A stretch of 36,341 nt of DNA, taken from IMG/VR virus record IMGVR_UViG_2778261216_000003; one strand, written 5' to 3'. The stretch's first letter is position 1. Each line of letters begins with the position of its first letter. A model generated the notes under the pieces. That model saw only the letters and a list, made by a program, of their open reading frames with translations, had not been told where the DNA came from and ran no database searches. Made by a program: the position numbers and the translations under genes. The stretch comes from a virus. Lineage: Duplodnaviria > Heunggongvirae > Uroviricota > Caudoviricetes. This document shows, in pieces, positions 3,601 to 32,988 of this stretch.

Positions 3601-4299
3601 TTACTGCGAAAGTTTGTTAATGGAAAGGAAGCCGCCAAAGTTGCCGACGTTATTGCGAAACTTACAGCCGCTCAGGCATTTGCTGCATTTATCCTTCGTG
3701 ATATCGGACGTCGGCTGATCATATTCATCCGCGACCGCCGGACCGTGATAACCGCACTCATCGCCGCGATAGGTCCAGGTGCAGGTGTTGGCCAGCATGA
3801 TACGTCCCGGAAAAACGGCACCGTCCGTTTCCGTCGGCGTGGACAGTACAAAAGAGGCACTCACCGCGCTCAGTTCGCTGCACTGCTCGATGCGCCAGCG
3901 GCTGATCACCTCCTGCTCCGGATCGGCGTCACTGTTTCCGTTGACGAAGTTCACCGCATCCAGAAAACGGGCGTAAACCTTACGCCGGACCACCGTTCCT
4001 CCGACCAGACTCTGCAGATCTTCCGCCATCCCGGTGACCATGCCGTGCAGGTTAGAAACCGTCAGTGTCGGACGGGCAGCACTGCCCTTGCCGTTCAGTT
4101 CAAATCCCGTCCCCTGAATGGGATACGCCTGATACTGTCGCCCCTGCCAGGTGACCGGCTCACCTTTTTCGTTCTGCTCATTACAGAAAAAATAACGTTC
4201 TCCACCGACCTCTGTCAGATCGATTTCCCAGAGCACCACCTGGGCTGACTGAGTGAGGCGTGTCGTCTCATGATGTGTTTCCTGTGGAATATCCTGCAT
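3601..4299 (-). CDS. L: Tail tip assembly protein L
   Basis: 232-aa ORF, same length and position as lambda gpL; Cys cluster CSKCLSGCKF near the C-terminus; sits between M and K. Confidence 0.88.
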   Translation of the reverse strand: MQDIPQETHHETTRLTQSAQVVLWEIDLTEVGGERYFFCNEQNEKGEPVTWQGRQYQAYPIQGTGFELNGKGSAARPTLTVSNLHGMVTGMAEDLQSLVGGTVVRRKVYARFLDAVNFVNGNSDADPEQEVISRWRIEQCSELSAVSASFVLSTPTETDGAVFPGRIMLANTCTWTYRGDECGYHGPAVADEYDQPTSDITKDKCSKCLSGCKFRNNVGNFGGFLSINKLSQ

Positions 4300-4308
4300 C
4301 AGAGACTC

Positions 4309-4638
4309 CTATGCCACGACCTGTTCAAAATCTGCCGTTATGGTTACCCACAACGCCCCCACGCTTGCCGACCATTTACGACAAACCACCCTGATCGGCT
4401 TCCAGTCATAAGGTGGCGTCCACTGAAATGCGCGGACGCCACCGTGCCGTTCCAGAAAGGCTTTTAAAGATGGGTGTTCACATTTACGAACACGTATCGT
4501 CACGCTGTAAGTCGACAACTGGTTATTCAGTCCCGCCGCACGACGCTGTTCATAACCATCGCCCAGCTTCACTGTCACCACTTTCGGCTCTGATACCACA
4601 TTCATATCCGGGCGCACTTTCCAGTGAAACGTCTCCAT
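4309..4638 (-). CDS. M: Minor tail protein M
   Basis: 109-aa ORF (lambda gpM is 109 aa) immediately downstream of the tape measure gene; ATG at 4638. Confidence 0.88.
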   Translation of the reverse strand: METFHWKVRPDMNVVSEPKVVTVKLGDGYEQRRAAGLNNQLSTYSVTIRVRKCEHPSLKAFLERHGGVRAFQWTPPYDWKPIRVVCRKWSASVGALWVTITADFEQVVA

Positions 4639-7600
4639 TACCGATATGCTCCACTTAACCGACCACCATCACGGGCCTGCTGTTGCATAAAGTCCGCTGC
4701 CGCTTTTTTCCCGAGGTCATAAACCACCTTCAGGGCAGCCGGACCTATCTGCCCGTTCGTGCCATCGTTATTGATCTCGATGTTGTACTGCGGGGCAAAC
4801 ATCGCCATACCTGAACCCCCAATATCCGCCACAACCCCCAGCTTACCGTCAGCACCACGACGCAGTGGCAGAATGGCTTCAGGTCCCGCTTCCCCCATCA
4901 CACCCGCGCCTTTTGCAAAAGCAAAAAACGTCGGACGGTTAACCACCGTGCCACTGTAACGACTCAAATCAGCAGACTGATAAATCCCCCCATTGGCATT
5001 CAGGGAAAGGCTGCTGAGATCAAATCCCAGTACACTGCCAATCCCTTTTATCGATTTCATCATGGTTGCCTGCGCCAGGATTTTCGCCATATCTGACAGC
5101 ACAGAAGAGGTGAAGGATTTGAAATTGAGTTTGCCGGTAGTGACAAAAGTTGCCAGGCCATTTCCCATGTTGCTGAAGGCTGACGAGAACACCTGTTCTG
5201 CTGTTCCTGCCGTATTATCTGCATCCACGGTAAAATCCTGAAATGCACGCAGGACTCCGTTTTTCCAGTTACCCTGCACAACTTCAAGCTGTTGCCAGTA
5301 ACGGCGATTCTCATTCAGTTGTCGGTTCAGGCTCTCCGTCAGCGCCTGCTCGGCCTTTCTGTAGTCATCCGTGTTATATGTTCCTTTCTGCTCACTATCC
5401 CGCCTCAACTGCTCCAGCTGTTGCTGGTATTTCTGGCGAAGACTCAGTTGTACCTGATATCGCTGCCGCTGCTGATCACCCATACCCACCGTGGCGATAT
5501 CCAGGTCATGTTGCTGACGCTGAGCGCGCTCTTCTTCAGCCAGTTGACTGGTCAGCTGAATTGTTTTTTTCTTCAGCTCGTTGAGTGCCGTCTGTTTCTG
5601 AAGCTCCTGCTGTTTTACATCCAGCAGCGTCAGTGCCTGAATCAGTTCATCTTTACGGGCCAGCACACTCTTTTCATCTGCCGTCAGTTTTTTCCCGTCC
5701 AGGTCGCTGATGCGCTGCTGCAGAGCCAGAAGCTGTTTATGCGCTTCTGTCATCCTTTCCGTGGCAATGCCTGCTGACTGTCTGGCAGCAGCAATCTGTC
5801 CTTCCACCTGTGCCTGTTGCTGACTGTACTGCAGCAATAACCGGGTGGCCTCATCATTACGGGGGTCGCGTGTTTTTTTCTTACCGGATGCCAGGGCTTT
5901 CTCGTAACGTTCATTTTCACGTTGTATCGCCGCATCCCTGACAGCCTGATCGGCGTACTGCATGGAATTAATACGCGCAATTTCACGCTGATGTCGTGCT
6001 GCTTCCGTTTCATTCATCCGGTTCAGTGCAGCATTTTCAGCATTACGGCGTTTCTGTTGCTCCTGATAATTCCGCTCTGCCTGCTCTTTTGCATCCTGCA
6101 AATCCTTCTGGCGTTTTTTCTCCTGAAGCTCGTTAAGACGCTGCTGATCGTACTCAACCTGAGAAGATGATGCCGTCCAGGGGAGTCTTTTCGCCCGCGA
6201 CACTTTCTCCTGTAAAGCGGAAATCTGTTCATCCAGCGAGTCTTCACGACCAATATTCATGGCCGCATCCCAGAAACGACTCCATAAATCAGACAGATAC
6301 TTCAGCGTACTGCCCAGCGCATTGAGGTTATTATCAATATCCGCAGTACGCCGACCGGTTTCCTCTGCCAGTGCAGACATGGCTATCCGTGCCGCATCAC
6401 TGGACCGCCCCTGTTCCCCAAGGACGCGTATCTGCTCAAGCTGAGTGGCAGTAAGAAAATGCAGCTCATTGTCCAGAGCCTTCGTGGCATTTACAGGATC
6501 ATCCTTCAGCCGCTTAAACTGATTTATGGTATCGCTGACCGACTGGCCAACCGATCGCTCCATCTGTGCGGCAGCTCTCGCCACCATACCGATATCGTTT
6601 CCACGAAATGCACCACTCCCCACCACCTGAGCCAGCGCACCGGCTGCAGCATGTTGCGTAATACCATTCCCGGAAATAGCACGACTGAGCGTCCACAGCT
6701 GCCCGGCAGTGACTCCGGCATAATGCCCCGTCAGCGACAACTGGCGGTTAAATTCTTCCCCCTCCTTCTGACCGTCATACCAGGCTTTACCCAGACCATA
6801 GACAGCCGCGGCAATACCGCCAATAACCCCGCCCAGCATCATGCCTTTCGGTGACATCAGTGTGTCTATCCATCCGGCACGGTTAGCCAGCGTTATTCCG
6901 GACCCCCTCAGCGCCCCTAAATTGCCGCGGGCCAGTTCACCTATCAGAACGCCTATCTCCTGGCGGGCTGCTGCACTTTTCAGACCCAGCGAATGCGTGG
7001 CTTTTCCTGCCTGCTCCATTTTGCGGATATACACTTCTGCAGCACTGCTTACCCCCAGCTGGGCAGCCTTAGCACGAAGCAACTCAGAAGATGAAAGATT
7101 CTGGCGGGTTGCCTGCTCTTTAAGCTGACGGATAAACGCCACTTTCTGTCGGGTAGCCTCTTCCTCAGCCTGTGTAAGAACACGGGTTTTCGCCGTAACC
7201 TCAGAAATCAGCGCCAGATAATCCTGCTGACCAATCCCGCCACTGTTTCTGGCCTGTCGGATCTGCTGCTGAATACGCTGTAATTCCTGCAGCCCCGCAC
7301 TGGCCTGTTTCACACTGTCAATCTGACGATAAAACGCAGCAGCCGCTTTATCCTGAGCCTCCGCCAGAGCCATGGCCTGCGCCTGTTCCTCGCGCATTTT
7401 CTGGCTCAGTGCCTCCATGCGCTGGCGGGTTTTCTCCACCTCGCGGGACATGCGTTCATGAGCCTGTGCGTTCTTCTCCACCGTCTGCGCATGGACGGAT
7501 GCGGCTGTTGCAGCCGAAGAAGCCGCCTGCGTTGTCTGCCGGGCGGCCTGAGTCTGACGCTCCATAAAACGCTGCATACGGGCAGAAGACCGTTCTGCAT

Positions 7601-10879: not shown

Positions 10880-12838
10880 TTACGCCGTACATTTCACCAG
10901 ACCGCGGTGATCAACTGGCGCGACACCGGCGTCAATACGCACTTTCGTTGTCACGCCATCCACACTGAAGCCCTCCATCTGATCAATATATGGCGTATCC
11001 ACACCGTTGAGATAAGCCACTTCAATCGTATCGGAGCCTTTTGACGCAGCCAGGTAGAAGGTGGTCTGGCTGTTATCATCAAGACGAGGCTCTGCAATAA
11101 CGGTCGCAAAATCTTTCACCGGGTTAATAATACCGGCGTTAATGTCAGCCCCCTTGACACTTGAGGAGCGAATGACCTGGTTAGCAACAGACTCCATCGC
11201 CGTCGGTACCAGTACGAACGCAGGACGAATATTCAGATGACGCTCCCCCTCTTTCTGAACGCGCATCAACTGGCGGGCTTTATCCAGCGATGCCACGTCC
11301 ATTGCAGCGCTATCCAGTACGTTTGCATGTTTCGCTTTATCGAACAGACTTACATTATCTGTGGAGATTTTCGGGTTAGACGTCAGAATGGCATAAACCA
11401 GATCGGCAATAGTGGATTTCGCCGCACGGCCCAGTTTCATCGGGACATCGGTCAGCATATTCAGATCATCATTGATAATGGCCTGACGGGTGATACTGAA
11501 CAGCTCGCCATAGGTCGCCAGTGCAATAGTGGCCTGTTTATCTCCGGTGGTGACGTATTTATATTCCGCCCCTTCACGCACCTGACGCAGAGCACTGAAG
11601 CCCCCCATACCCACACGATGGGCAATTTTAAAATCAGACAACTGACCTTTCCGCGTCCACTGTTCATAGGTTTCAGGGGCATCTTCCCAGCCCTGCAGAA
11701 TGGCTTTGTTCGCAACATCCAGCAGAATATTACCGAAGTCAGACGTACTGTGTGTGAACGCCGCACCGACCATCTGCATCGGGTTATAACCGGAAACCCC
11801 AATACCCCGTTCAGTCAGTGACATACGGGCATATTCACGCAGGGTCATCCCGTTGTAGACATTATCACGTTCGGTTTTTTCAAATCCGGCACGCGCCATC
11901 AGCGCCTGGCGGATCCCGTCCCCCACAAAATTACCGTTTCCGGCATAAATATGAGCCGGGGTATTTTTATTGGATGGCGTGGACTCGCGCCCCATCTCGT
12001 TCAACAGCTTTTCGCGGGCCTGCTCCAGCGAACATTCAGGATCGGCAAGACACTGAGCCTGCAGCGTCTGATAACGCCCGCCAAACATGGCAAACAGATC
12101 ATTAATACCGTTTACACGCGCTTTTTGCTCTGCCAGTACCTGCGCACGGATACTGTTTTCATCCACCACGGGTGCTGCTGCCTGCACTGGCGTCCGGGAG
12201 GCTGCAGGTTCATCATCCTGTACGCGTGGAGCACTGTTGCGTGGCGGAGTAATCATGTTTCGAATGGATTCCGGCATCTTTTTAAATTCCTCTGTACGTT
12301 TTGACTGAATACATGCCATTGCCTTAACGGCTGGCGTCACCTGATCAGCAAATCCCTGTGCCAGACATTCGGCACCGGACATCCAGGTCTCATCCGCCAG
12401 CATGGCAGCAATTTCATCGGTGGTTTTCCCGGTTTTCTGTGCATAAGCGGGTAACAGAACCGCCTCAACCTTATCGAGCAGGTCGGCATAGGTGCGCATG
12501 TCCTCCGCATCACCGCCCGTAAAGCCAAATGGTTTATGAATCATCATGAAGGTGTTTTCCGGCATAATGACCGGGTTTCCCACCATCGCAATGACCGACG
12601 CCATTGACGCCGCCACACCGTCGACATAAACGGTAATGGACGCACCATGTGTTTTCAGCGCATTAAAAATGGCGATGCCTTCAAAGACATCGCCACCCGG
12701 TGAATTAATATGGAGATTAATGTGGGTGATATCGCCCAGTGCATTCAGATCACTGATAAACTGCTTCGCTGTAACACCCCAGAAACCAATCTCGTCATAA
12801 ATATAAATATCCGCGTCACTCTGGTGACCAGCCTGCAT
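10880..12838 (-). CDS. ClpP-like head maturation protease fused to HK97-fold major capsid protein (about 652 aa)
   Basis: N-terminal part has the ClpP/S14 hallmark INSPGGDVFEGIAIFNA plus the candidate Ser GVAASMAS. After an Ala/Pro-rich linker the C-terminal ~400 aa resemble an HK97-type capsid protein. The ATG at 12838 overlaps the portal stop by about 14 nt; the track ORF extension to 13099 is antisense to portal. Confidence 0.82.
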   Translation of the reverse strand: MQAGHQSDADIYIYDEIGFWGVTAKQFISDLNALGDITHINLHINSPGGDVFEGIAIFNALKTHGASITVYVDGVAASMASVIAMVGNPVIMPENTFMMIHKPFGFTGGDAEDMRTYADLLDKVEAVLLPAYAQKTGKTTDEIAAMLADETWMSGAECLAQGFADQVTPAVKAMACIQSKRTEEFKKMPESIRNMITPPRNSAPRVQDDEPAASRTPVQAAAPVVDENSIRAQVLAEQKARVNGINDLFAMFGGRYQTLQAQCLADPECSLEQAREKLLNEMGRESTPSNKNTPAHIYAGNGNFVGDGIRQALMARAGFEKTERDNVYNGMTLREYARMSLTERGIGVSGYNPMQMVGAAFTHSTSDFGNILLDVANKAILQGWEDAPETYEQWTRKGQLSDFKIAHRVGMGGFSALRQVREGAEYKYVTTGDKQATIALATYGELFSITRQAIINDDLNMLTDVPMKLGRAAKSTIADLVYAILTSNPKISTDNVSLFDKAKHANVLDSAAMDVASLDKARQLMRVQKEGERHLNIRPAFVLVPTAMESVANQVIRSSSVKGADINAGIINPVKDFATVIAEPRLDDNSQTTFYLAASKGSDTIEVAYLNGVDTPYIDQMEGFSVDGVTTKVRIDAGVAPVDHRGLVKCTA

Positions 12839-19137: not shown

Positions 19138-19368
19138 TCAACTCAAGAGCCTTATTGCTGCTTCCAGAATTTCTTCTGAAGTAACATGTCGATCCGCGGC
19201 TACATAAATGACTTTATGATCTCCGGTCAGAGATGGAAACCCTGCGGCCATTACAGTAAGGTGTGTTTTTTCGCCATTTGGATATTCACGCATGATGGTG
19301 TTAACTCCAGTCATCGCTGGCACTACCACTGCTGGTTCAGAGTTAAAAAAAACTATGATTTTTTTCAT
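19138..19368 (-). CDS. Hypothetical small protein (YnfN-position)
   Basis: About 76 aa from the internal ATG at 19368 (MKKIIVFFNSEPAVVVPAMTG...); sits between the gnsB-like gene and cspI as ynfN does in Qin. No family recognised with certainty. Confidence 0.4.
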   Translation of the reverse strand: MKKIIVFFNSEPAVVVPAMTGVNTIMREYPNGEKTHLTVMAAGFPSLTGDHKVIYVAADRHVTSEEILEAAIRLLS

Positions 19369-19639
19369 GATGTTACCGTAGTATGTGAGTATCCATCGAA
19401 TAGATACCAAGCAAAAAAGCTCCCGAAGGAGCCTTCATTTTCACTTTTTTAAATCCAACGACAGACGGCTGGCATTTAAGTATTGTGAAATATTATCAAA
19501 TGTAATCATCATTGATTTACAAAAGATACATTTTGCCCCGAAAGGATTCATGTCAGAAACATCAAAAGATGATGTTCTATACTGGGAACCATGACAACAC
19601 GGGCATCTAAAGTGAATATGGTTTGTAATATTGTCTACC

Positions 19640-19852
19640 TCAAAGCGCCACTACATGAACAGCGGCAGGACCTTTAGGTCCGTTCTCAATACCAAATTCA
19701 ACTTCCTGATTCTCAGTTAATGTTTTGAAATCGTTGCTCTGAATTGCTGAGAAATGGACAAACACATCTTTGCTGCCATCTTTCGGCGTGATGAAACCAA
19801 AACCTTTTTCAGGGTTAAACCATTTCACTAAACCAGTCATTTTGTTAGACAT
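19640..19852 (-). CDS. cspI: Cold shock protein, CspI-type
   Basis: 70-aa [41 protein letters not shown]... with RNP1/RNP2 cold-shock-domain motifs (KGFGFI, VFVHF); followed upstream by a long AT-rich leader typical of csp genes. Confidence 0.9.
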
Positions 19853-20215
19853 AATTATTACCTTTTGAAGAAATTAGCCCTTGGGCAGAATGGTCCGAAA
19901 AAAAATATCAGAGAGAAAAACCAACAAGGAAATCTCAAGAGGTACAAATAATAAAATTATAACAATGACTGCTTCAGATAAATTTGTAACAAACCAGAAC
20001 ACCATTAACGCATGATTAACCACCCATAGCAAGGATTACTTTTGTAAAGAAAAACACAGCAATGAAAGAATAGCTTTATTTATTAATAATAACGTGTCAT
20101 TCTGATTAAGACCTTTTATCTTACCCTTAAGATTTCAGGAATTTTGGCTCATGGAAGAGTCCTTTTTATTTAAATTTTACATTCCGCGATGTAAATGTTC
20201 CGATTTAATATTACC

Positions 20216-21239
<1,024 letters not shown>

Positions 21240-21243
<4 letters not shown>

Positions 21244-21527
21244 ATATATTTATGATGAGGACGCTCGTGCTTATTGGCAGGATTTTCAATCTTAAAGGAG
21301 TACTGATGCTGCAGATAAGACTCAACTTTTTCTGACAATTTTTCTGCTACTTCCAGGAAGACTTGCCGGACGCTCCTTCTGGCTGCTGCCTCATAAAACT
21401 CCAGCGCAGCTCCTTCAACACGGTCCATGGCGACATCCAGGTCAAAAATTTCACCGTCAAAGCGTTCTTTGTCCTGTAAGGCTACAGTTACCGTAACTTT
21501 ATTCTCAAAATTACGGACTCCTTTCAC
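21240..21527 (-). CDS. YdfR-like small protein (DUF1327-type), between holin and endolysin
   Basis: 95-aa ORF tightly packed (ATGA overlap) with the endolysin; same position as ydfR in Qin. Family from recall. Confidence 0.5.
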
Positions 21528-21555
21528 AACCAGTTCATAGTCTTGAGTCGTTGGA

Positions 21556-21771
21556 TTACTCTCCTCTCGCAGCCTTACGCCTGTCTTCTTTAATCTTGAA
21601 ATAAAGATTTGTCAGATACGTCAGCAGGCCAAAAACCAGGCTACCCAGCACACCGATTGCAGCCCACTGTGACGGAGTTACTTTATCGAGTAACTGCAAT
21701 GCCCAGAAACCAGCATTACCCGCCGATGTGCCATAGGCAACACCTGTTGTTAACTTATCCATTGATTTCAT
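21556..21771 (-). CDS. Pinholin (phage-21 S-type class II holin) with dual start
   Basis: From the ATG at 21771: [71 protein letters not shown], compared with recalled S21 ([68 protein letters not shown]); the MKSM dual-start motif is present. Confidence 0.85.
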
Positions 21772-21990
21772 ATCCTCACCCCGATGTACACGGATGGTGC
21801 AATATGTTTGAAAAGATCGGAGTCTACGGGGTAGTTTTGACAGCACACGTTGTTCTCAACGGCGCTAAAAAAACATACACATTAAAAATGTGGGTAATTA
21901 TTTTGAAAGAAAGTCATATATAAAATAATAATACGAGAAATGTTTTCATATTTAGTGTACTGTATACGGCCATTTATACAGGAAAAGCCT

Positions 21991-22161
21991 ATGTCAGAAC
22001 GTAAAAACTCAAAATCACGCCGTAATTATCTCGTTAAATGTTCCTGCCCAAACTGCACCCAAGAGTCAGAACACAGTTTTTCAAGAGTACAAAAAGGTGC
22101 CCTTTTGATCTGCCCTCATTGCAACAAAGTATTCCAGACAAATCTTAAAGCTGTAGCCTGA
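21991..22161 (+). CDS. Small zinc-ribbon protein (CxxC...CxxC), hypothetical
   Basis: 56 aa from the ATG at 21991 (AGGAAA Shine-Dalgarno): MSERKNSKSRRNYLVKCSCPNCTQESEHSFSRVQKGALLICPHCNKVFQ...; two CxxC pairs; followed by a stem-loop at 22225-22243. Confidence 0.4.
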   Translation: MSERKNSKSRRNYLVKCSCPNCTQESEHSFSRVQKGALLICPHCNKVFQTNLKAVA

Positions 22162-22224
22162 TTGATTTTATTAGTAACAAGTATTTTTTATATTTTAATA
22201 ATATATTTAAAGCAGATAATAAAA

Positions 22225-22243
22225 AACCCGCCTGAGCGGGTTT
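22225..22243 (-). terminator. Rho-independent terminator (strong on the minus strand, weaker on plus)
   Basis: AACCCGCctgaGCGGGTT stem-loop; on the minus strand it is followed by TTTTTTATT. Confidence 0.5.
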
Positions 22244-22524
22244 GAGATTGTGGTGCTTTTTGTGGGAGTCATCCACTTACGCACTTTGTTTTGCCATGCC
22301 AGCAGTTAGCTTCTGCTGTAAAACTATTCATGCAGCAAACCTGCACTTCACCACAATGGTTAGCATACTTTTCCTGATTAAGATTTTGCCAAATATGCTA
22401 GCCATTGTTTCATGTATTGGACCTCCTTACTTTTTATTAAAGAGATCCAATATTCACTACTCTGTCCGTATCTCTACTCAGGCATCAGCCTTCTTCGTTA
22501 TCGTATACAGACGAGCGATGAATT

Positions 22525-22740
22525 TTAATCAGTAATGATGACATTTGCTGCTGCAGGACCTTTAGCACCACTCTCTATAGAGAAGGTAACCTTTTGACCT
22601 TCAAATAAGGTTCGATAATTATCATTCTGAATCGCAGAAAAATGCACAAACACATCTTTACTACCATCAACAGGAGAAATAAAGCCGAAACCTTTATCAG
22701 CGTTAAACCATTTTACTAAACCAGTCATTTTATTTGACAT
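22525..22740 (-). CDS. cspB: Cold shock protein CspB
   Basis: 71-aa [70 protein letters not shown]..., matching recalled E. coli CspB. Confidence 0.9.
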
Positions 22741-23040
22741 TCTACATTCCTTAACTTGAGCCTTTCGGCATAAATGGTTTGCATAACAGAAACGACTTCG
22801 TACTTAATTGGAGAGACTCAAAGAAGGAATAAGTGAATAACACCTGAAATGAGAACTGCTTTAGTAAACTACTTCGTATATCGTCTGTTCTTCAAACCGA
22901 CGCAATCATTAACGCATAGTTGAACATATGAAGCAATGTTTATTTTAGACATCCAGCCATCTTCAACCCCATCAAAAAACTATAGCTTTCTTCAGGAACG
23001 TGTGTATAGTGCGCCAAGTTATCAGTATTAAGGAATTTTT

Positions 23041-23253
23041 TTGTCCCGTAAAATGACAGGAATTGTCAAAACCTTTGACGGCAAAAGCGGCAAGGGTCTT
23101 ATCACCCCATCCGATGGTCGTATCGATGTCCAGCTTCATGTTTCAGCGCTCAATCTCCGCGATGCAGAAGAAATTACCACCGGATTACGCGTGGAATTTT
23201 GCCGGATAAATGGTCTGCGTGGCCCTTCAGCTGCCAATGTTTACCTTTCATGA
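23041..23253 (+). CDS. cspF: CspF/CspH-type cold-shock-domain protein
   Basis: 70-aa [40 protein letters not shown]...[21 protein letters not shown]; divergent from cspB as in Qin. Confidence 0.85.
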
Positions 23254-23545
23254 GCTATATTAAAGCTTTAATTTCAGGCCCCATCGGATCACACATGGAG
23301 AGTTTTTATGAATAACCCCGTCTGTCTTGATGACTGGTTGATTGGCTTTAAAAGCTTATGCTGTACTTTGGCCGTAATAGCTCTGCTAATAATATAATAA
23401 GCAGACTCATTGTGTTTAGGGACATTGTACTGGAAGAAAACATTTTAAACATCAGGCAAATAACCAAGTCACCAGCTAAATAATAAGTTAACAGACATGA
23501 GTCCCGGGATGAGATTCAACATTACCATTGCCCCATTTAAAGCAC

Positions 23546-23569
23546 AAAACCCGCTCATCAGCGGGTTTT
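23546..23569 (-). terminator. Bidirectional stem-loop; on the minus strand the candidate tR' terminator downstream of pR'
   Basis: AAAACCCGCtcatcaGCGGGTTTT; the minus-strand transcript would read stem then UUUUGUGCUUU; located about 40-60 nt downstream of the predicted late promoter. Confidence 0.5.
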
Positions 23570-23614
23570 CTACTTTTTCTTAACGTCGGGTATACAAAGC
23601 CCATCGTTGAAAAA

Positions 23615-23643
23615 ATTTTATCCATATTTTTTGAAAAATGCAA
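23615..23643 (-). promoter_or_regulatory. Candidate late promoter pR' (sigma-70) immediately downstream of Q
   Basis: Minus strand reads TTGCAT - 17 nt - TAAAAT, a near-consensus -35/-10 pair, about 30 nt after the Q stop codon. Confidence 0.5.
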
Positions 23644-23674
23644 ACATCATGTCGCCATCTTCAGCAAAAATCAT

Positions 23675-24427
23675 TTATCTCGTCACCTTCCTCAATTGCG
23701 CTTCCGCGTATGCTTCTTCCTGCCAGCACTTTGTTACCAGTTTATCAATGACGTCCGCATACCCCTTATACCACTGATAATCGGTCAGGTCTGGTACCAG
23801 CTTCTGGACATGACGTCGTGCCAGCGTGGTCGGTAAACGACTAAATCGGTTTCCATTACAACGCCCACAAATCTTATATACCGGTACGCCATGAAACCGG
23901 GTTCTTTTTTCATCCAGAACAATCCCTTTACCCTTACACCCTCTGCACGCTGTGCTGACTTCGCCCTTACCATGGCAATGCTGACATAGTTCCTTCACCC
24001 ATTCTTCCTTGATTACAGATTCCCCGCGTCTGTAGTGTTTCACCACTTCGCGCAATACATTATAAAATCCCGTACCTGAACAATGCTCACAGCGAGCCTT
24101 ACTTGCCGCAGACCTGGAGTAATCAGCAAAGGCAAAATTCACAAGGTAAGGAATAATCTGTAACCGGATTTCTTCACTCAATTTGTTCAATGTCGGGTTA
24201 TCCAGTGCCATCGCGTAATTTAGCAGGCCTTCAATCGCAAACTGAGGGTCCTGAACACCAACTTTTGCCAGAAATAAGGCCAACCCAAGTGGTGCTTTCG
24301 ACTGCACCATCCCCTGCGCTGCCATTACATCCGTAATTGTTAAACAACCGGTGCCTGTCGCTGGAGCGTCATCGCTCAATTTTGGAGATTTTGGGGAGTA
24401 ATATTTTGGTAAGGCTTCAAGGTTCAT
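23675..24427 (-). CDS. Late-gene antitermination protein Q (QuuQ-type, 250 aa)
   Basis: 250-aa ORF with Cys-rich zinc-binding clusters (CEHCSGTG, CQHCHGKG, CRGCKGKG, CGRCNGN), directly upstream of the pR'/tR' pair. Confidence 0.82.
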   Translation of the reverse strand: MNLEALPKYYSPKSPKLSDDAPATGTGCLTITDVMAAQGMVQSKAPLGLALFLAKVGVQDPQFAIEGLLNYAMALDNPTLNKLSEEIRLQIIPYLVNFAFADYSRSAASKARCEHCSGTGFYNVLREVVKHYRRGESVIKEEWVKELCQHCHGKGEVSTACRGCKGKGIVLDEKRTRFHGVPVYKICGRCNGNRFSRLPTTLARRHVQKLVPDLTDYQWYKGYADVIDKLVTKCWQEEAYAEAQLRKVTR

Positions 24428-24440
24428 GCTCGTTCTCCAC

Positions 24441-25529
24441 TTACGCCAGTACGCCAGTTGCCAGCGCGCGATCGATAAAACGAAATATCAGCTCCAGTTG
24501 GGAGCCATACTTCTCTTCAAATGCCACTGTATCCGTATGCAGCTCGTTGTGATGCTTTCTGCACAAAGGCAACACAAAGAGATCATGTGCTTTTGTTCCC
24601 ATTCCGCCCTGCCCGTGACCAATCAGATGATGCGGATCGTCGGCTGGCATACCGCAGCAAGCACACGGCTGTGTCTTAACCCAACGAGTGTATTTCTCCT
24701 TAACCCAGCGGCGACGTTTAGGCAGCTTCATGAAAGATTCCGGAGACTCTGGATCAACGGTGATGCTTACCACCGTCTTTTCCTGTGGTGGTTTTTGTTG
24801 CTGGTGGGCGTAAGGCAACGGTGCAAGATTTTCTGTGCGTTGTTTCAATATGCTGGTGGCGGTCTGCTCTCCCTGTACGATGTCGCTTTCGCGGTACACC
24901 GAGCAGATTTTTTCCGCTGGTAATCCCAGCGAACGACGCGATACAGCCTCAGGTAGTGCATCCACCACCTGATTGCAGACCGCCCACCAGGATAATTCAG
25001 CCAAAGATAATTCCCGCTCCTGCGTACCGCTTATTGCGTGACGGATGACGTCAATCACCCATGCTGTCAGATTTTGTTGAGCAAGCAGCTCCAGTGATTC
25101 CGATGTCTGGTCACGCAGTTGGTTGTCGCAGTGCCAGCACAACACCATTGCGCCGGTACCATAACGGTGAATGACTGTTTCAGTGTGATGGTAATCGCCA
25201 TTAGGCCACTGGCAGGATGTAACATGACGTAATAGCCAGTCAGACAATGCGCCAACGCCGCCAGTAGCACGAATCACCCGTTCGTTACTAAAAAACGGCA
25301 GCAATGTTTTGTCTTCTGCCAGCGGCTGGCGAACGGCAGGAACGACTCCGGATGGCAGATTTCGCATGCTTTTTGGTTCCGGTTCCACCAGCACTCGAGG
25401 ATTATGAAATATCTGTATGGATTCACGGCCCGGCTTAAGGACCACCAGCCCAAGCTCAGGCACCAGAACAGGTCTAAGTAATACCCGCACGTTACCTCCA
25501 GATCCGTTGCTGGAAAGTGCGGGACGCAC
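24441..25529 (-). CDS. DUF968-type protein with C-terminal HNH-like nuclease motif (YdfU-like)
   Basis: C-terminal region CACCGMPADDPHHLIGHGQGGMGTKAHDLFVLPLCRKHHNELH is an HNH-type metal-binding motif. The N-terminal boundary is uncertain: a GTG near 25490 would give a product of about 349 aa abutting the upstream ORF stop. Confidence 0.65.
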   Translation of the reverse strand: MRPALSSNGSGGNVRVLLRPVLVPELGLVVLKPGRESIQIFHNPRVLVEPEPKSMRNLPSGVVPAVRQPLAEDKTLLPFFSNERVIRATGGVGALSDWLLRHVTSCQWPNGDYHHTETVIHRYGTGAMVLCWHCDNQLRDQTSESLELLAQQNLTAWVIDVIRHAISGTQERELSLAELSWWAVCNQVVDALPEAVSRRSLGLPAEKICSVYRESDIVQGEQTATSILKQRTENLAPLPYAHQQQKPPQEKTVVSITVDPESPESFMKLPKRRRWVKEKYTRWVKTQPCACCGMPADDPHHLIGHGQGGMGTKAHDLFVLPLCRKHHNELHTDTVAFEEKYGSQLELIFRFIDRALATGVLA

Positions 25530-25770
25530 GTGGTGGGCGTTCGGAATAAGGCAGCCTGACAGAGATTATCCAGTGCCGATAGTCGAGACTGAGAGCTTTC
25601 TTAACCTCGAACCCGCGCCTGCGGTAAGAATGAATCAGCCATTCGGCCTGTTCTGCAGTGCATGGAGGGTGCTGGAACCATTCAGACTTGAATGCGTGAG
25701 AATACCGCCCGTGCGTGCAGGCAAGAACGGGCGAATTATCAGAATTGTAATATTTTACGTTGCGTGCCAT
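25492..25770 (-). CDS. Hypothetical protein (92 aa)
   Basis: ORF between the Rem-like gene and the DUF968 gene in the early-right operon; no family recognised. Confidence 0.4.
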   Translation of the reverse strand: MARNVKYYNSDNSPVLACTHGRYSHAFKSEWFQHPPCTAEQAEWLIHSYRRRGFEVKKALSLDYRHWIISVRLPYSERPPRASRTFQQRIWR

Positions 25771-25836
25771 CGGTTTTCTCCGGTGGCACGGTGTTACTCA
25801 GCGGGAGTTCAGCCCCGCGCAAGATTGTAGATGAGT

Positions 25837-26088
25837 TTATTCTTCTGCAAAAGCAGAAAAGCCAGCTTTTATTCCGATCTCTTTCAATGCCTGTAATGAA
25901 GTGACAAACTCACCTTCGCGCAAGATAAATCCGTCCGTGACCCGAGCATCCACAAAATTAATTAACGCAGCCCCATTCTTTCGCAAACACATAATGCGGT
26001 AATGACTAACAAGATTTCCATTTTCAACGCACACAGCATAGAGGCCATCTTCACAAAAAATTTTACGCAGTTCTTCGATGTTCATCAT
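25837..26088 (-). CDS. Rem-like small protein (83 aa)
   Basis: 83-aa ORF MMNIEELRKIFCEDGLYAVCVENGNLV...; same size and position as rem of Qin (adjacent to hokD). Assignment from synteny and size. Confidence 0.45.
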   Translation of the reverse strand: MMNIEELRKIFCEDGLYAVCVENGNLVSHYRIMCLRKNGAALINFVDARVTDGFILREGEFVTSLQALKEIGIKAGFSAFAEE

Positions 26089-26218
26089 CAGAATCCTTCC
26101 GGATAATTAGCTCTCCCCTTTAAGGGACCATCCCTCTTATCCCTGCGCGCTACTTAAGTATTTTTGATTCTATTCCGGCACCGTCCAGATCTTCAAACGC
26201 GTTGAAAATAAAAACAAA

Positions 26219-26236
26219 AACCCGCCGAAGCGGGTT
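26219..26236 (-). terminator. Rho-independent terminator downstream of hokD
   Basis: AACCCGCcgaaGCGGGTT; the minus-strand transcript ends stem + UUUGUUUUUAUUUU. A second perfect 9-bp hairpin GGCGAGGGA-TTTC-TCCCTCGCC at 26276-26297 sits between hok and this terminator (candidate fold-back element of the hok mRNA). Confidence 0.55.
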
Positions 26237-26304
26237 AAGTGCGGGTGCGTTGAGGATGCCTGCCACATCAGAGGTGGCGAGGGATTTCTCCCTCGCCGGG
26301 TCTC

Positions 26305-26460
26305 TTACTCCTCAGGTTCGTAAGCTGTGAAGACAGCGACCTCCGTCTGGCCGGTTCGGATTCGTACCTCGCAGAGGTCTTTCCTCGTTACCAGTGCCGT
26401 CACTATGACGGTTAAACAGATGACGATCAGGGCGATTAACATCGCCTTTTGCTGCTTCAT
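26305..26460 (-). CDS. hokD: Hok-family type I toxin (HokD/RelF-type, 51 aa)
   Basis: From the ATG at 26460: MKQQKAMLIALIVICLTVIVTALVTRKDLCEVRIRTGQTEVAVFTAYEPEE, a single-TM Hok peptide. Confidence 0.88.
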   Translation of the reverse strand: MKQQKAMLIALIVICLTVIVTALVTRKDLCEVRIRTGQTEVAVFTAYEPEE

Positions 26461-26517
26461 AGCCTGCTTCTCCTTGCCTTTCGGCTCGTAAGAGGCTAAC
26501 CTACATGTGTCTAGCAT
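26305..26517 (-). CDS. Mok-like in-frame upstream extension of hok (70 aa)
   Basis: The ORF starting at 26517 (MLDTCRLASYEPKGKEKQA...) continues in frame into hok, as mokC does for hokC in K-12. Confidence 0.45.
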   Translation of the reverse strand: MLDTCRLASYEPKGKEKQAMKQQKAMLIALIVICLTVIVTALVTRKDLCEVRIRTGQTEVAVFTAYEPEE

Positions 26518-27134
26518 GAAATTGGCCTCAGATTAATGTTAAGCGTCTTGCAGGACGCGTAATGTTAACTGGGGCTTTTCTCTATCTGCCTTTGGTGTTC
26601 ATGCCCGAGGCAGATAGCCTCAAGCACCCGCAGCCATTCTACTTAACTACCGTTACCTCGCCAATATGAAATCAGTCAGAAAGGCGATCCATAAGAACAA
26701 TAGCAAGACAATAAATCGCCATTACAGCCGTAATAGCCAGCGCACATTTGAGAACCAGCACCACAACCTCCTGTATTGGACGTAGACCAGTCCTGATGAA
26801 TATGAGGCTGTCTCGTCAGTGATTCAATACAACTATTGGGTATAGTTTCTCTGATTTTTTCTGTGGAAATGGGGCACAACCACTAGTCACCACCAGCACT
26901 TCTTTTAATACGCAAAGTCCGACACAAGCTAACCTTCTAGTCCGCTTTGAGCGAAAAACAGCCATAATTTAGTGCCACGTATATAATGATAGAGCTATTC
27001 AAGCTAGCAATTCACATGTAAAAATTCAGAGGGTAGAAGCACATAGTTATAAATGTTGGCTCCATCGACAAATTGCGGTCTCAAGTACATTTATTAATGT
27101 TGCCCCCGCATTAACAAATCATCAAGGTGACGAC

Positions 27135-28922
27135 ATGGACGATATTAATATCAGCCTCGATGAACTTAACACTATTGATTTATCCCCCTTAATCCAGAGT
27201 AAGCTGCCAGTTACCTGCTTTGATATCACAAAGTATCTTTCTAGCCTAGGTGATGGAAGAGCGGAGATAAGACTGCTAACCCATATTTGCGGTTTTCACT
27301 TTCGTCCCGAAAATCCACAGGTACCATTTGGTCCGTGCTTTCAAAGCAGCCAAGGTAGATCTGCAATTCCGGATGACATTAACGGGTTGTCGCTGGAGGT
27401 ACTTTCTCAATTTTGCCCGACGATAGAGCTACCCGAACTTCAAGCTCGTATTGCTGATACACTTTGGGTTCGTAAAATTGGTGGAATCCGTTTTCCTTTG
27501 CTGGCAGTCCGTGCTTATTATGCGTCCAGTATAGCTATTATGACATCGCAAGGGACGTGGGTTAGTGCTTTAGAACGCCTAGAGCGTGCGCTTAGGCTGT
27601 GTTGTTTTTTTCGAAAGAATACTGATTTCAGGGATGAATTTGATCAGCTTTCGGCACATCTACTAGCAGAGTATGAACGTACCAGAGAACAAGGCGATTC
27701 ACCTTATCCGCTGCGACTCCTGCAACTCGATATCGACTGTAAAGTGAGTGAGCCATCTTTTATTGCCCAGGAACTCCTGTTTCTGACAAAAAACTATCTG
27801 GCTCAAAAATTATTTTCATTTGCCGTCGATGCCTGTAAAACCGCAATCACGATTGCGAATAGGTGCTGTGACAGAGATACACAGTTTGAATTCTGGCGGC
27901 TTCTTGCCGATACACATCTGGAAGAGTCAAAATTCCAAGATGGCGGTATGATTTCGGCAGCCTGCATGCAGAATGCTATTGAAGCACTGGCTAATATTCC
28001 AGGAACCCGAATAGAACGTCTTGCGCTGTATGAAGAAATGCGTGATTACCAAATCGAATCCCGTCACCAGATGTCTATCCTTCAGTCTCCCCCTCAAGAT
28101 ATTAGTGAGATTGTCCATCAAGCCAAGAGTCGGGTAGTCGGAAGAGATATGTTTGATATGGTTTTCAGACTTGCGATGCTGGTCTGTCGGCCAACCAGCA
28201 TTGAGAGACTTAAGGCTCAAGCAATAGAACAAAAGGCCAACAGCATAGCTTGGATGTTTGGATCAACACATATTGATCATGAGGGAATGACACTTGCTCG
28301 CATACCCGCAGGATTGGGGATTGATGATGCAAATGGGGCAGTTATTTGGCCCATAATGATGACGAGAATGCGTATCGACCATGAGTTGGCAGTAGCTGGG
28401 CAAATTATTCCTGCTACAGATGAGATCACAATGAAATATCCAATCTCGGAGGCGTTTTTTCGCGATATGTTCATCAATCATCCCTTCATCCCGTTTGGGC
28501 ATGAAGAGTTTTTCATCAAGGGTATGGTTTGCGGTTTCAATGGAGATTTTATGACGGCATGCCACGTGTTGATTCCCCAGATCGAAAATAGTCTGAGATA
28601 TGTGGCTAAAATTAAAGGTGAGGAACCATCGCAGCTTCACGGGGACGGTTCGCAAGAGCGAAATGGACTCAAGGGATTACTAGATAATCCACTGATTATT
28701 GAAGCTTTCGGCGTAGACATAATTGGCAATCTTCAGGCCTTACTGGTAGATAAAATCTATGGTGATTTACGAAATCAACTAGCTCACGGATATGTGCCTG
28801 CCGGTTACTACAATCAACCTCCCTGCATTTTTGCATGGTGGCTTGTATTGCACATTCTAATGAACCCTACGGCGAGATACTGGCAAGCCACTTATGGCCA
28901 AGAGAGTGAGGCTCAGACTTAA
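27135..28922 (+). CDS. Large hypothetical protein (595 aa) with C-terminal HEPN-like R-x4-H-G motif; candidate anti-phage defense / abortive-infection moron
   Basis: Long uninterrupted ORF with AAGGTGA Shine-Dalgarno; opposite strand to all flanking prophage genes; visibly more AT-rich than neighbours; C-terminus contains DKIYGDLRNQLAHGYV (R546-x4-H551-G); no Walker A motif; a palindrome TTAATG-n9-CATTAA lies just upstream. Confidence 0.75.
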   Translation: MDDINISLDELNTIDLSPLIQSKLPVTCFDITKYLSSLGDGRAEIRLLTHICGFHFRPENPQVPFGPCFQSSQGRSAIPDDINGLSLEVLSQFCPTIELPELQARIADTLWVRKIGGIRFPLLAVRAYYASSIAIMTSQGTWVSALERLERALRLCCFFRKNTDFRDEFDQLSAHLLAEYERTREQGDSPYPLRLLQLDIDCKVSEPSFIAQELLFLTKNYLAQKLFSFAVDACKTAITIANRCCDRDTQFEFWRLLADTHLEESKFQDGGMISAACMQNAIEALANIPGTRIERLALYEEMRDYQIESRHQMSILQSPPQDISEIVHQAKSRVVGRDMFDMVFRLAMLVCRPTSIERLKAQAIEQKANSIAWMFGSTHIDHEGMTLARIPAGLGIDDANGAVIWPIMMTRMRIDHELAVAGQIIPATDEITMKYPISEAFFRDMFINHPFIPFGHEEFFIKGMVCGFNGDFMTACHVLIPQIENSLRYVAKIKGEEPSQLHGDGSQERNGLKGLLDNPLIIEAFGVDIIGNLQALLVDKIYGDLRNQLAHGYVPAGYYNQPPCIFAWWLVLHILMNPTARYWQATYGQESEAQT

Positions 28923-29140
28923 AGTGAATAAGTTTACGAAGTTGGCACTTCCGGATGCATGTCCATATGAGTTGAGGCGATTTGGTTAATAAGGTTGAGT
29001 GCTGCTGAAATTATTCGATGTCCGCTTTTGGCACAAAGCGGACAACCACGCCAGATCTACCCTGTGCCATGAAAAATGAGAATGTCAATTCACTCCTGAA
29101 CTAATGCTTTTTAATCTAGTAACGTCTAAAATACCTAACA

Positions 29141-29542
29141 TTATCCCTGATAAAATGCCAGTATGCGCTGCATAACTTCACTCATCCGGCACTCGCGACA
29201 GATTATGTTTAGGCGACTGTCGTAGCGACGTATTTCTCCATCAGGTAACGACCAGATAAGGTCCGGATCAACCACAGCTGTTTTCTTCACCTTTGCCCTC
29301 GAGAGTTTTTTGCGGGCGTTTTGCCAGTCCTTACGCGCCTGTTCAGACGGGAATAACCCGTAGCCGGAGTTGTATACATCGCCACTGGCTACCAGCTCTC
29401 TGGCAAGAACGCTCATCAGATATCTAGTCGCACCTGTTTTAGCTTCCAGTTGCCGTAACGTCTCACGACCGCTCTGGCGCACGAGTTCCACCACCTGCCC
29501 TTTAATTTTTTCCCGCTCTTCTTGTGTAAAAACTTTTGCCAC
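29141..29542 (-). CDS. Hypothetical protein with putative HTH/winged-helix region (133 aa)
   Basis: ORF immediately downstream of the O-like replication gene; the segment ETLRQLEAKTGATRYLMSVLAREL looks HTH-like; no family recognised. Confidence 0.55.
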   Translation of the reverse strand: MAKVFTQEEREKIKGQVVELVRQSGRETLRQLEAKTGATRYLMSVLARELVASGDVYNSGYGLFPSEQARKDWQNARKKLSRAKVKKTAVVDPDLIWSLPDGEIRRYDSRLNIICRECRMSEVMQRILAFYQG

Positions 29543-32930: not shown

Positions 32931-32988
32931 TTTCTGGTGACGTTTGGCGGTATCAGTTTTACTCCGTGACTGCTCTGCCGCCGTTTTT
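32931..32988 (+). ncRNA. dicF: DicF small RNA (ftsZ-targeting antisense sRNA)
   Basis: Sequence TTTCTGGTGACGTTTGGCGGTATCAGTTTTACTCCGTGACTGCTCTGCCGCCGTTTTT matches recalled DicF almost base for base, including the 3' GGCGG...CCGCC stem and U-tract; lies immediately upstream of dicB. Confidence 0.75.

Follow-up and report, generated by a model that had tools for sequence, protein, structure and literature searches.

Our data point toward a prophage-borne gene of predicted immune function. The gene lies at positions 27135 to 28922 of IMG/VR virus record IMGVR_UViG_2778261216_000003 (Caudoviricetes), and the window, by which we mean the whole stretch of 36,341 nucleotides (nt) that was analysed, is a Qin-like lambdoid prophage. 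In our judgement, the gene is probably lysogenic-conversion cargo (a "moron") of this prophage that encodes a self-contained immune or conflict effector on a single polypeptide. An earlier note on this DNA had presented it as an orphan, possibly undescribed candidate for a single-gene anti-phage defence system with a HEPN-like motif at its C-terminus. The HEPN and candidate-defence reading is essentially right; the words "orphan" and "undescribed" are wrong, and the defence function is a prediction from sequence. The gene and the two blocks of codons on which the argument turns are as follows:

27135 to 28922, plus strand: gene of the DUF7380 + TPR-like + DUF4209 (HEPN) protein, 595 amino acids (aa), ATG start, TAA stop; member of the PADLOC candidate family PDC-S39
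28770 to 28790, plus strand: codons of R546-N-Q-L-A-H551-G552, the predicted catalytic R-x4-H motif, recognised by conservation
28578 to 28598, plus strand: codons of Q482-I-E484-N-S486-L-R488, the second invariant block, in the first HEPN core helix, recognised by conservation

The open reading frame (ORF) proposed in the earlier note is the annotated one, as RefSeq WP_000340970.1 ("DUF4209 domain-containing protein") has identical coordinates. The gene is present in 152 of 5,426 complete Escherichia coli genomes, chromosomal in every case; identity is at least 99% in 150 of them, 147 of the 152 copies are full length, and the exact 595-aa sequence is found in at least 1,000 public contigs. 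The arginine and histidine that had been read as a HEPN signature, R546-x4-H551 followed by glycine, are indeed there, in DKIYGDLRNQLAHGYV (residues 539 to 554, including R546, H551 and G552). The protein contains four R-x4-6-H strings, and therefore, such a string alone could be due to chance; it is conservation across divergent homologs that makes the R546/H551/G552 motif significant. All 47 aligned homologs, the most distant at about 25% identity, have R546, H551 and G552 unchanged, which is true of no other R-x4-6-H string in the protein, and Q482, E484, S486 and R488 are likewise invariant in this alignment. Furthermore, R-x4-H-G was found within the C-terminal 170 residues of 259 of the 261 full-length family members sampled, P2-phage versions included, and the strict pattern Q-x-E-[NDS]-S-x-R in 208 of the 261. 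The protein was also said to lack a Walker A motif, which is correct: there is no [AG]xxxxGK[ST] in it, and no ATPase family is among its Pfam matches, so that an assignment to the OLD/AAA-type ATPases finds nothing to stand on.

Three parts can be distinguished in the polypeptide:

27144 to 27632, plus strand: N-terminal DUF7380 region (aa 4 to 166), a small alpha/beta head with the first helical repeats (Pfam PF24098; AlphaFold predicted local distance difference test [pLDDT] 85 to 97)
27384 to 28070, plus strand: TPR-like alpha-helical repeat (aa ~84 to 312)
28548 to 28916, plus strand: C-terminal HEPN-type domain (aa ~472 to 594; Pfam DUF4209 at aa 484 to 573)

The HEPN fold expected at the C-terminus was examined in an AlphaFold2 monomer model built from the 47-sequence alignment (mean pLDDT, 88.9). 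The model shows the all-alpha, up-down helical bundle of a HEPN-type domain, with R546-x4-H551 on a helix of residues 545 to 551 and Q482, E484, S486 and R488 on a helix of residues 472 to 493; hence, the conserved polar/acidic residue of the first HEPN core helix is present. The check that the earlier note had proposed for a HEPN fold thus came out in its favour. A Foldseek comparison of the C-terminal model with the Protein Data Bank (PDB) gave no match, and searches of PDB sequences with the single protein, the full-length profile and the C-terminal profile returned chance or TPR-like matches and no HEPN entry. Given these null results, the fold support for HEPN is not unanimous. Taken together, the invariant R-x4-H-G and the predicted structure support the assignment of the C-terminus as a HEPN-type domain and predicted ribonuclease (RNase), and we propose that the DUF7380 region may be the sensor or regulatory part. 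It is imaginable that the HEPN-like domain is non-catalytic and serves in ligand binding or scaffolding, as in KNTase or sacsin, and that the protein acts by some other mechanism, e.g., as a TPR-based adaptor. However, catalytic HEPN domains show just this pattern: R, H and the G after them do not vary even among very divergent members, and neither does a further polar block on the first core helix. Moreover, the HEPN survey of Anantharaman et al. 2013 lists DUF4209 as a HEPN family, typified by human C6orf70 (ERMARD), that is predicted to be catalytically active, is "fused to TPR" and "occurs in R-M related operons" (restriction-modification, R-M) (PMC3710099). A non-catalytic domain therefore seems to us quite improbable.

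That the gene is not an orphan is evident from a profile search against 1.84 billion representatives of 50%-identity clusters, which returned 7,422 relatives at E ≤1e-3 and 2,833 at E ≤1e-30. The best 150 relatives are all ~600 aa long and match from end to end, and therefore, the three-part DUF7380/TPR-like/HEPN architecture is a conserved unit. The hosts include enterobacteria, Vibrio, Pseudomonas, cyanobacteria and marine bacteria, among others, and one member is on an archaeal (Natrinema) plasmid. Nor is the protein undescribed, since it combines Pfam DUF7380 (PF24098; aa 4 to 166, E = 2e-34, 119.3 bits against a gathering cutoff of 27) with DUF4209 (PF13910; aa 484 to 573, E = 3e-8, 34.0 bits against 22.3), has been covered by the HEPN superfamily since 2013 and belongs to PADLOC PDC-S39. 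Both hidden Markov models of PDC-S39 match it, PDLC05012 with E = 8.4e-103 (aa 43 to 581 against profile positions 54 to 602 of 615) and PDLC05011 with E = 2.6e-102; none of its matches to PADLOC models is to a named defence system, Abi (abortive infection) included. NCBIfam gave no match, and the two PHROGs families that matched are both of unknown function. PDC-S39 is cited in strain surveys only as an unvalidated "phage defense candidate". Furthermore, Table S5 of DefensePredictor lists WP_021514655.1, an E. coli DUF4209 protein of 595 aa (1788 nt), with a mean log-odds of 4.34 as a "predicted novel defense gene"; this entry is likely an allele of the gene described here, going by name and length and unconfirmed by sequence. 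The identification as such is already known, given that Pfam, the 2013 HEPN survey and PADLOC cover the family. Literature searches for DUF7380, WP_000340970, P2-EC46 and ERMARD with HEPN found nothing, and neither the searched literature nor the PDB holds a phenotype, structure or biochemistry for PDC-S39.

The place of the gene in the prophage is the second line of evidence. The window is more complete than Qin of E. coli K-12: tail, head and terminase genes fill positions 1 to 19 kb, and positions 19184 to 26474 are 99.6% identical to K-12 Qin. On the minus strand, the order is Q (ydfT), ydfU, rem and hokD, and, beyond the 595-aa gene on the plus strand, DUF977, a 339-aa replication-region protein, YdaT and Cro. 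Annotation agrees that the 595-aa gene is the sole plus-strand gene between Q and cro. The slot that it fills is bordered by two features:

26455 to 26629, minus strand: sok antisense RNA of the neighbouring hokD locus, left flank, outside the cassette (Rfam RF01794, 116 bits)
29141 to 29542, minus strand: DUF977 gene, first gene of the right flank, on the replication-module side (Pfam DUF977, E = 6e-27; annotation)

K-12 Qin carries relE-relB-ydfV-flxA at the equivalent place, much as the earlier note had stated, and its idea of a variable cargo slot is well founded: most of the other genes that occupy it are of the defence type. At this position, the G12 prophage has a RelA/SpoT-domain protein (PADLOC PDC-S33, E = 5e-119) and the SCU-152 prophage an FRG-domain protein (PADLOC PDC-S15, E = 7e-99). 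We then took a census of the cargo in 29 IMG/VR contigs having both flanks. The commonest cargo is a HAD-family hydrolase with a NUDIX hydrolase (11 contigs; 1472 bp, with a weak PDC-S07 match), followed by the DUF4209 cassette, which is intact in nine contigs and interrupted by an insertion sequence (IS) in two. Three contigs carry a cargo of 3495 bp with genes for a SIR2 (ThsA-like) protein, a Ham1/ITPase-family protein and an adenosine deaminase. The best PADLOC match of the SIR2-like protein is ThsA SIR2 (E = 9e-32), the deaminase is CARF_ADA-like (E = 1e-35), and the three genes match no single named system in PADLOC; the cargo looks like a nucleotide-targeting defence system. A 310-aa protein with the motif YRSKAVHGG is the cargo in two contigs (1210 bp); it carries LYDYRSKAVHGGATS (R-x4-H-G) near its C-terminus, has no Pfam or PADLOC match and, judged by this motif, may be a further uncatalogued HEPN-type cargo of the slot. 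The remaining cargo type, an XRE-cupin protein with a GNAT protein, is present in two contigs. E. coli B (C3029) was considered as an ancestral empty slot and rejected, since its deletion across 26785 to 29245 removes the left flank and the 3′ end of DUF977 along with the whole cassette site.

Closer inspection of the boundaries revealed that the gene travels in a cassette:

26942 to 29043, no strand: cargo cassette, ~2.05 to 2.1 kb, which moves as a unit (homology limits, plasmid and phage copies)
26940 to 26963, no strand: left boundary hairpin, decayed, GTCCGCTTT-GAGCGA-AAAACAGCC, with three mismatches to GTCCGCTTT-N6-AAAGCGGAC
29019 to 29044, no strand: right boundary hairpin, TGTCCGCTTT-TGGCAC-AAAGCGGACA, with a 10-bp stem, 97 nt past the stop codon

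In a base-level comparison, prophages with other cargo are homologous up to 26952/26965 and again from 29015/29020, and the cassette holds the 595-aa gene only, with 186 nt upstream and 97 nt downstream of it. All slot cassettes (loci L003, L004, L017, L073 and L018 to L084) are flanked by two related hairpins of ~24 nt in the same orientation, GTCCGCTTT-GAGCGA-AAAGCGGAC on the left and GTCCGCTTT-TGGCAC-AAAGCGGAC on the right; the window has two copies, compared to 0.01 expected by chance. The right hairpin of the window is perfect (folding energy, −14.7 kcal/mol; z, −3.5), and the left one, which has no stable fold in the window copy, is intact on the plasmid and alongside other classes of cargo. 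One compensatory change of the arms, GGCCGCTTT...AAAGCGGCC, was seen in a hairpin of the plasmid copy.

This plasmid copy is on a conjugative IncF plasmid of Klebsiella pneumoniae (IncFIB/IncFII, 161 kb). It matches window positions 26942 to 29043 at 96.5% and encodes a 97%-identical protein; plasmids with it are present in 12 Klebsiella records. A group II intron/umuDC region lies on one side of the plasmid cassette, an IS110-family transposase abuts its right hairpin, and an antirestriction gene is located downstream. The cassette has also entered a different phage backbone: IMG/VR contig L073 matches 26948 to 29043 at 92% and carries it between a SRAP gene and umuDC, invertase and tail-fibre genes, and an 81%-identical Citrobacter copy has the same SRAP/umuDC context at a prophage end. 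Since the limits of homology to the plasmid and to the second phage fall at the hairpins, the mobile unit is the cassette and not the gene alone. The hairpins were also considered as intrinsic terminators, an option that was rejected: the stem is stable, and there is no T-run after it on either strand, nor did the terminator scan call them. A genome-wide scan for the hairpin picked up mainly unrelated palindromes of alphaproteobacteria and was uninformative on the enteric element. The hairpins may be recombination joints or RNA 3′-end elements. A hairpin-based mechanism of cassette exchange was not found described in the literature examined, and hairpins, palindromes and terminators all go unmentioned in a 2026 paper on the modular evolution of P2/P4 hotspots. 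Two elements of the present description may be new, namely the recognition of a hotspot for hairpin-bounded cassettes between hok/sok and DUF977 and the transfer of the cassette from one backbone to another, hairpin to hairpin.

Mobility of this kind, which has brought the cassette into a prophage, onto conjugative plasmids and into another phage backbone, would also be expected of a selfish module, i.e., a self-inhibited HEPN toxin that helps to retain the cassette or prophage, or hits rival plasmids and prophages, and gives no protection from lytic phages. The cassette adjoins hok/sok, and K-12 has relBE in the slot, both of the addiction type. Furthermore, two natural IS insertions were found among the IMG/VR contigs: in one, an IS21-family element sits directly after the N547 codon, within the R-x4-H motif, and leaves a truncated product of 553 aa (WP_001774883.1); in the other, an IS3-family element lies ~84 nt upstream of the start codon. 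These two disrupted variants suggest that the gene carries a cost, although the evidence is anecdotal. However, there is no antitoxin-like partner and, with 186 nt upstream and 97 nt downstream, no room for one; no neighbour is conserved across contexts, the copies in E. coli are nearly all full length, and many toxin-like modules of this kind proved to be phage defences. We regard selfish stabilisation or competition between elements as unlikely, if still worth keeping in mind, and consider lysogenic-conversion cargo with an immune function the better description of the cassette.

The contexts of the family elsewhere fit a gene that acts alone. No neighbour is conserved across more than 10 contexts, in agreement with the single-gene status claimed at the outset, and a nucleotidyltransferase, the partner that defines HEPN/MNT (type VII) systems, was found neither among the neighbours in any context examined nor as a second gene in the cassette. 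Divergent PDC-S39 members of 643 and 612 aa, with the motifs LRHKLAHG and IRHTMAHG, are located between gpA and gpQ of P2-like phages, a locus that Rousset et al. showed experimentally to be a defence hotspot (PMC9122126). The carriers are vB_EcoM-569R9 (positions 4041 to 5972) and P2-EC46 (ORF612), with 22 to 24% identity over the C-terminal half; gpA-gpQ is the tin/old hotspot, which brings the different phage hotspots with cargo of this family to at least three. In an Enterobacter kobei prophage, the copy lies between antiterminator Q and holin (lysis genes). IS elements and group II introns stand alongside the Oleispira copy, with genes of a cyclic oligonucleotide-based anti-phage signalling system (CBASS) 6 to 8 kb away, and the Shewanella copy adjoins a Schlafen/AlbA_2 gene. 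In the cyanobacterium Trichocoleus (contig positions 11926 to 12348), the gene overlaps a downstream PIN-domain gene (E = 4e-6) by 4 nt, a pair that may be a lineage-specific two-gene variant. A conserved downstream partner was also sought in the Vibrio/Aeromonas clade and rejected, because the two ORFs of ~160 aa are not related. Effectors are often encoded by the morons of lambdoid prophages, and some effectors are helical-repeat proteins, so that a secreted virulence or type III secretion system effector has to be considered as well; however, neither Pfam nor NCBIfam gives a match to an effector family, and effectors that target a host do not fit a family so common in free-living cyanobacteria, in marine bacteria and on archaeal plasmids. 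Such a role strikes us as hardly credible.

Expression from the cassette itself is conceivable. The Shine-Dalgarno sequence noticed earlier, AAGGTG at 27124 to 27129 (plus strand), is 5 nt before the ATG and is unchanged in four independent copies, and one hexamer may belong to a promoter:

26982 to 26987, plus strand: TATAAT, −10-like hexamer within the cassette, possibly part of its own promoter, with a weak −35; the same in three close copies

That the gene opposes the early-right operon and has an invariant Shine-Dalgarno sequence agrees with its being expressed independently in the lysogen. Of the palindrome described upstream of the gene, TTAATG-N9-CATTAA is present at 27094 to 27114, but its arms are of 6 bp and are lost in copies of 92% and 80% identity; it was rejected as a functional element and, by this lack of conservation, is probably not meaningful. 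Likewise, the reported AT-richness is real but modest: the G+C content is 44.7% in the gene and 43.9% in the cassette, compared to 50.9% and 47.9% in the flanks, and other regions of the window are far more AT-rich (33 to 40% G+C at 18 to 20.5 kb). These most AT-rich parts are the csp regions, where matches to the cspA-type thermoregulator of the 5′ untranslated region (cspI/cspB region) were found at 19613 to 19998 and 22509 to 22901 (both minus strand); the small RNA DicF is at 32932 to 32983 (plus strand), and both csp and DicF are expected for a Qin-type prophage. On the left flank, the hokD locus (26305 to 26460, minus strand) has a full sok region, and the identity to K-12 Qin ends at 26474, where K-12 has relE/relB instead. 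Between sok and the left hairpin, ~300 nt (26630 to 26940) are unannotated and are 91 to 99% conserved in many E. coli prophages; an ORF at 26676 to 26879 (minus strand; 67 aa, TTG start, Cys/Gly-rich C-terminus GGCGAGSQMCAGYYGCNGDLLSCYCSYGSPF) is a candidate gene.

Several observations weigh against an immune role of the 595-aa protein. The scan for consensus promoters and terminators near the gene found nothing over shuffle expectation or threshold. The HAD-plus-NUDIX and GNAT cargoes of the slot are not obviously defensive. The P2-hotspot systems that Rousset et al. validated do not include the family (PMC9122126), DUF4209 has no entry in the DefensePredictor table of cloned systems, and experimental tests of any DUF4209/PDC-S39 member were not found in the searched literature, the scope of which did not extend to the prophage-defence screen of Brenes and Laub 2025. 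In Vibrio (e.g., Vibrio cholerae), Aeromonas and Pseudomonas, the copies are small lone islets among housekeeping genes, and the eukaryotic C6orf70/ERMARD branch has been traced to the last eukaryotic common ancestor, with a predicted role in RNA processing and not in immunity (PMC3710099). The conserved eukaryotic branch, the housekeeping neighbourhoods and the metabolic look of the HAD-plus-NUDIX cargo would suit an RNA-processing or regulatory role that benefits the phage or the host, acting on transcripts or tRNAs in lysogeny or stress as predicted for C6orf70/ERMARD. Yet the distribution is patchy and mobile, the few E. coli genomes that have the gene carry near-identical copies, further copies are in recognised defence hotspots and islands, and two independent defence-prediction resources, PADLOC and DefensePredictor, flag the family. 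We give this role a small chance only, and it is the single-polypeptide immune effector that we consider further.

In our model, the C-terminal HEPN domain would be a metal-independent RNase with an active site formed from R546 and H551. The DUF7380 head and the TPR-like repeat may hold the protein inactive and act as its sensor. Two HEPN domains are probably needed, as in other HEPN nucleases, and a phage-derived trigger might bring them together by dimerisation or by rearrangement of an oligomer. Once active, the enzyme would cleave RNA of the host and/or the phage (tRNA, rRNA or mRNA), with growth arrest and abortive infection as the outcome. Transcription opposite to the early-right operon, from signals of its own, could allow the protein to be made in the lysogen. 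A bolder version of the model is possible but doubtful: the whole family might be single-protein immune sensor-effectors in which phage recognition by the DUF7380/TPR-like part releases the HEPN RNase, and the ~24-nt hairpins might serve as physical joints in the exchange of defence cassettes among hotspots on plasmids and unrelated phage backbones. If true, this would give a first function to a family that reaches human ERMARD (C6orf70).

The gene is already catalogued as a candidate, and what we present is a sound lead and not a discovery; its value lies in experiment rather than in identification. If validated, a large DUF family (~7,400 clusters at 50% identity) that spans bacteria, archaeal plasmids and eukaryotic relatives, including human ERMARD, would become a characterised single-gene anti-phage system, and a well-delimited lambdoid (Qin-type) defence hotspot would join the known P2/P4 hotspots. 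The sensor-plus-HEPN architecture is clean, and the natural E. coli cassette is compact and easy to clone. In addition, the hairpin-bounded cassettes offer a testable handle on the movement of defence genes between phages and plasmids.

In comparison with known systems, the protein is a direct member of PDC-S39, given nearly full-length matches to its models, both Pfam domains, a length of ~600 aa, the invariant R-x4-H-G and no architectural difference; PDC-S39 itself is a computational candidate family only. It is like AbiJ, AbiF/AbiD, AbiU2 and ApeA in being a single-gene protein with a C-terminal HEPN domain, as these abortive-infection proteins are, any similarity being limited to the HEPN domain; the nearest known defence protein in the HHblits comparison of DefensePredictor is the C-terminal domain of AbiJ (probability ~67%, query coverage ~0.19). 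Unlike the HEPN toxins of HepT/MntA toxin-antitoxin systems and the CRISPR ancillary RNases Csm6/Csx1, the protein has neither an MNT antitoxin nor a CARF or CRISPR context; its large N-terminal part must provide any regulation in cis. Tha of Staphylococcus aureus prophages is, like the predicted role here, a prophage-encoded HEPN immune protein, and it is activated by a structural (tail) protein of the incoming phage (PMC11087260); it belongs to an unrelated family and host, and the sensing of a tail protein is a feature of Tha. A further likeness is to HepS of Gifsy-1 in Salmonella (Sargen et al., Nature 2026), which is also a single HEPN protein with R-x4-6-H that is cargo of a lambdoid prophage, has no partner gene and lies in a comparable slot, between replication genes and late regulators. 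HepS rests as a non-toxic tetramer, is activated by a siphovirus tail-tip protein and cleaves tRNA anticodon loops, leading to abortive infection (PMC13043305). However, HepS is a solo HEPN domain of <250 aa with the motif R100-H105, compared to 595 aa with a DUF7380 head, a TPR-like repeat and a C-terminal HEPN domain here. Its authors define the family as standalone HEPN proteins of ≤250 aa with no additional domains (PMC13043305), and an identity with HepS was rejected on size and architecture. Hence, the likeness is one of "works like" and not of "is a": we propose that the 595-aa protein may work like HepS.

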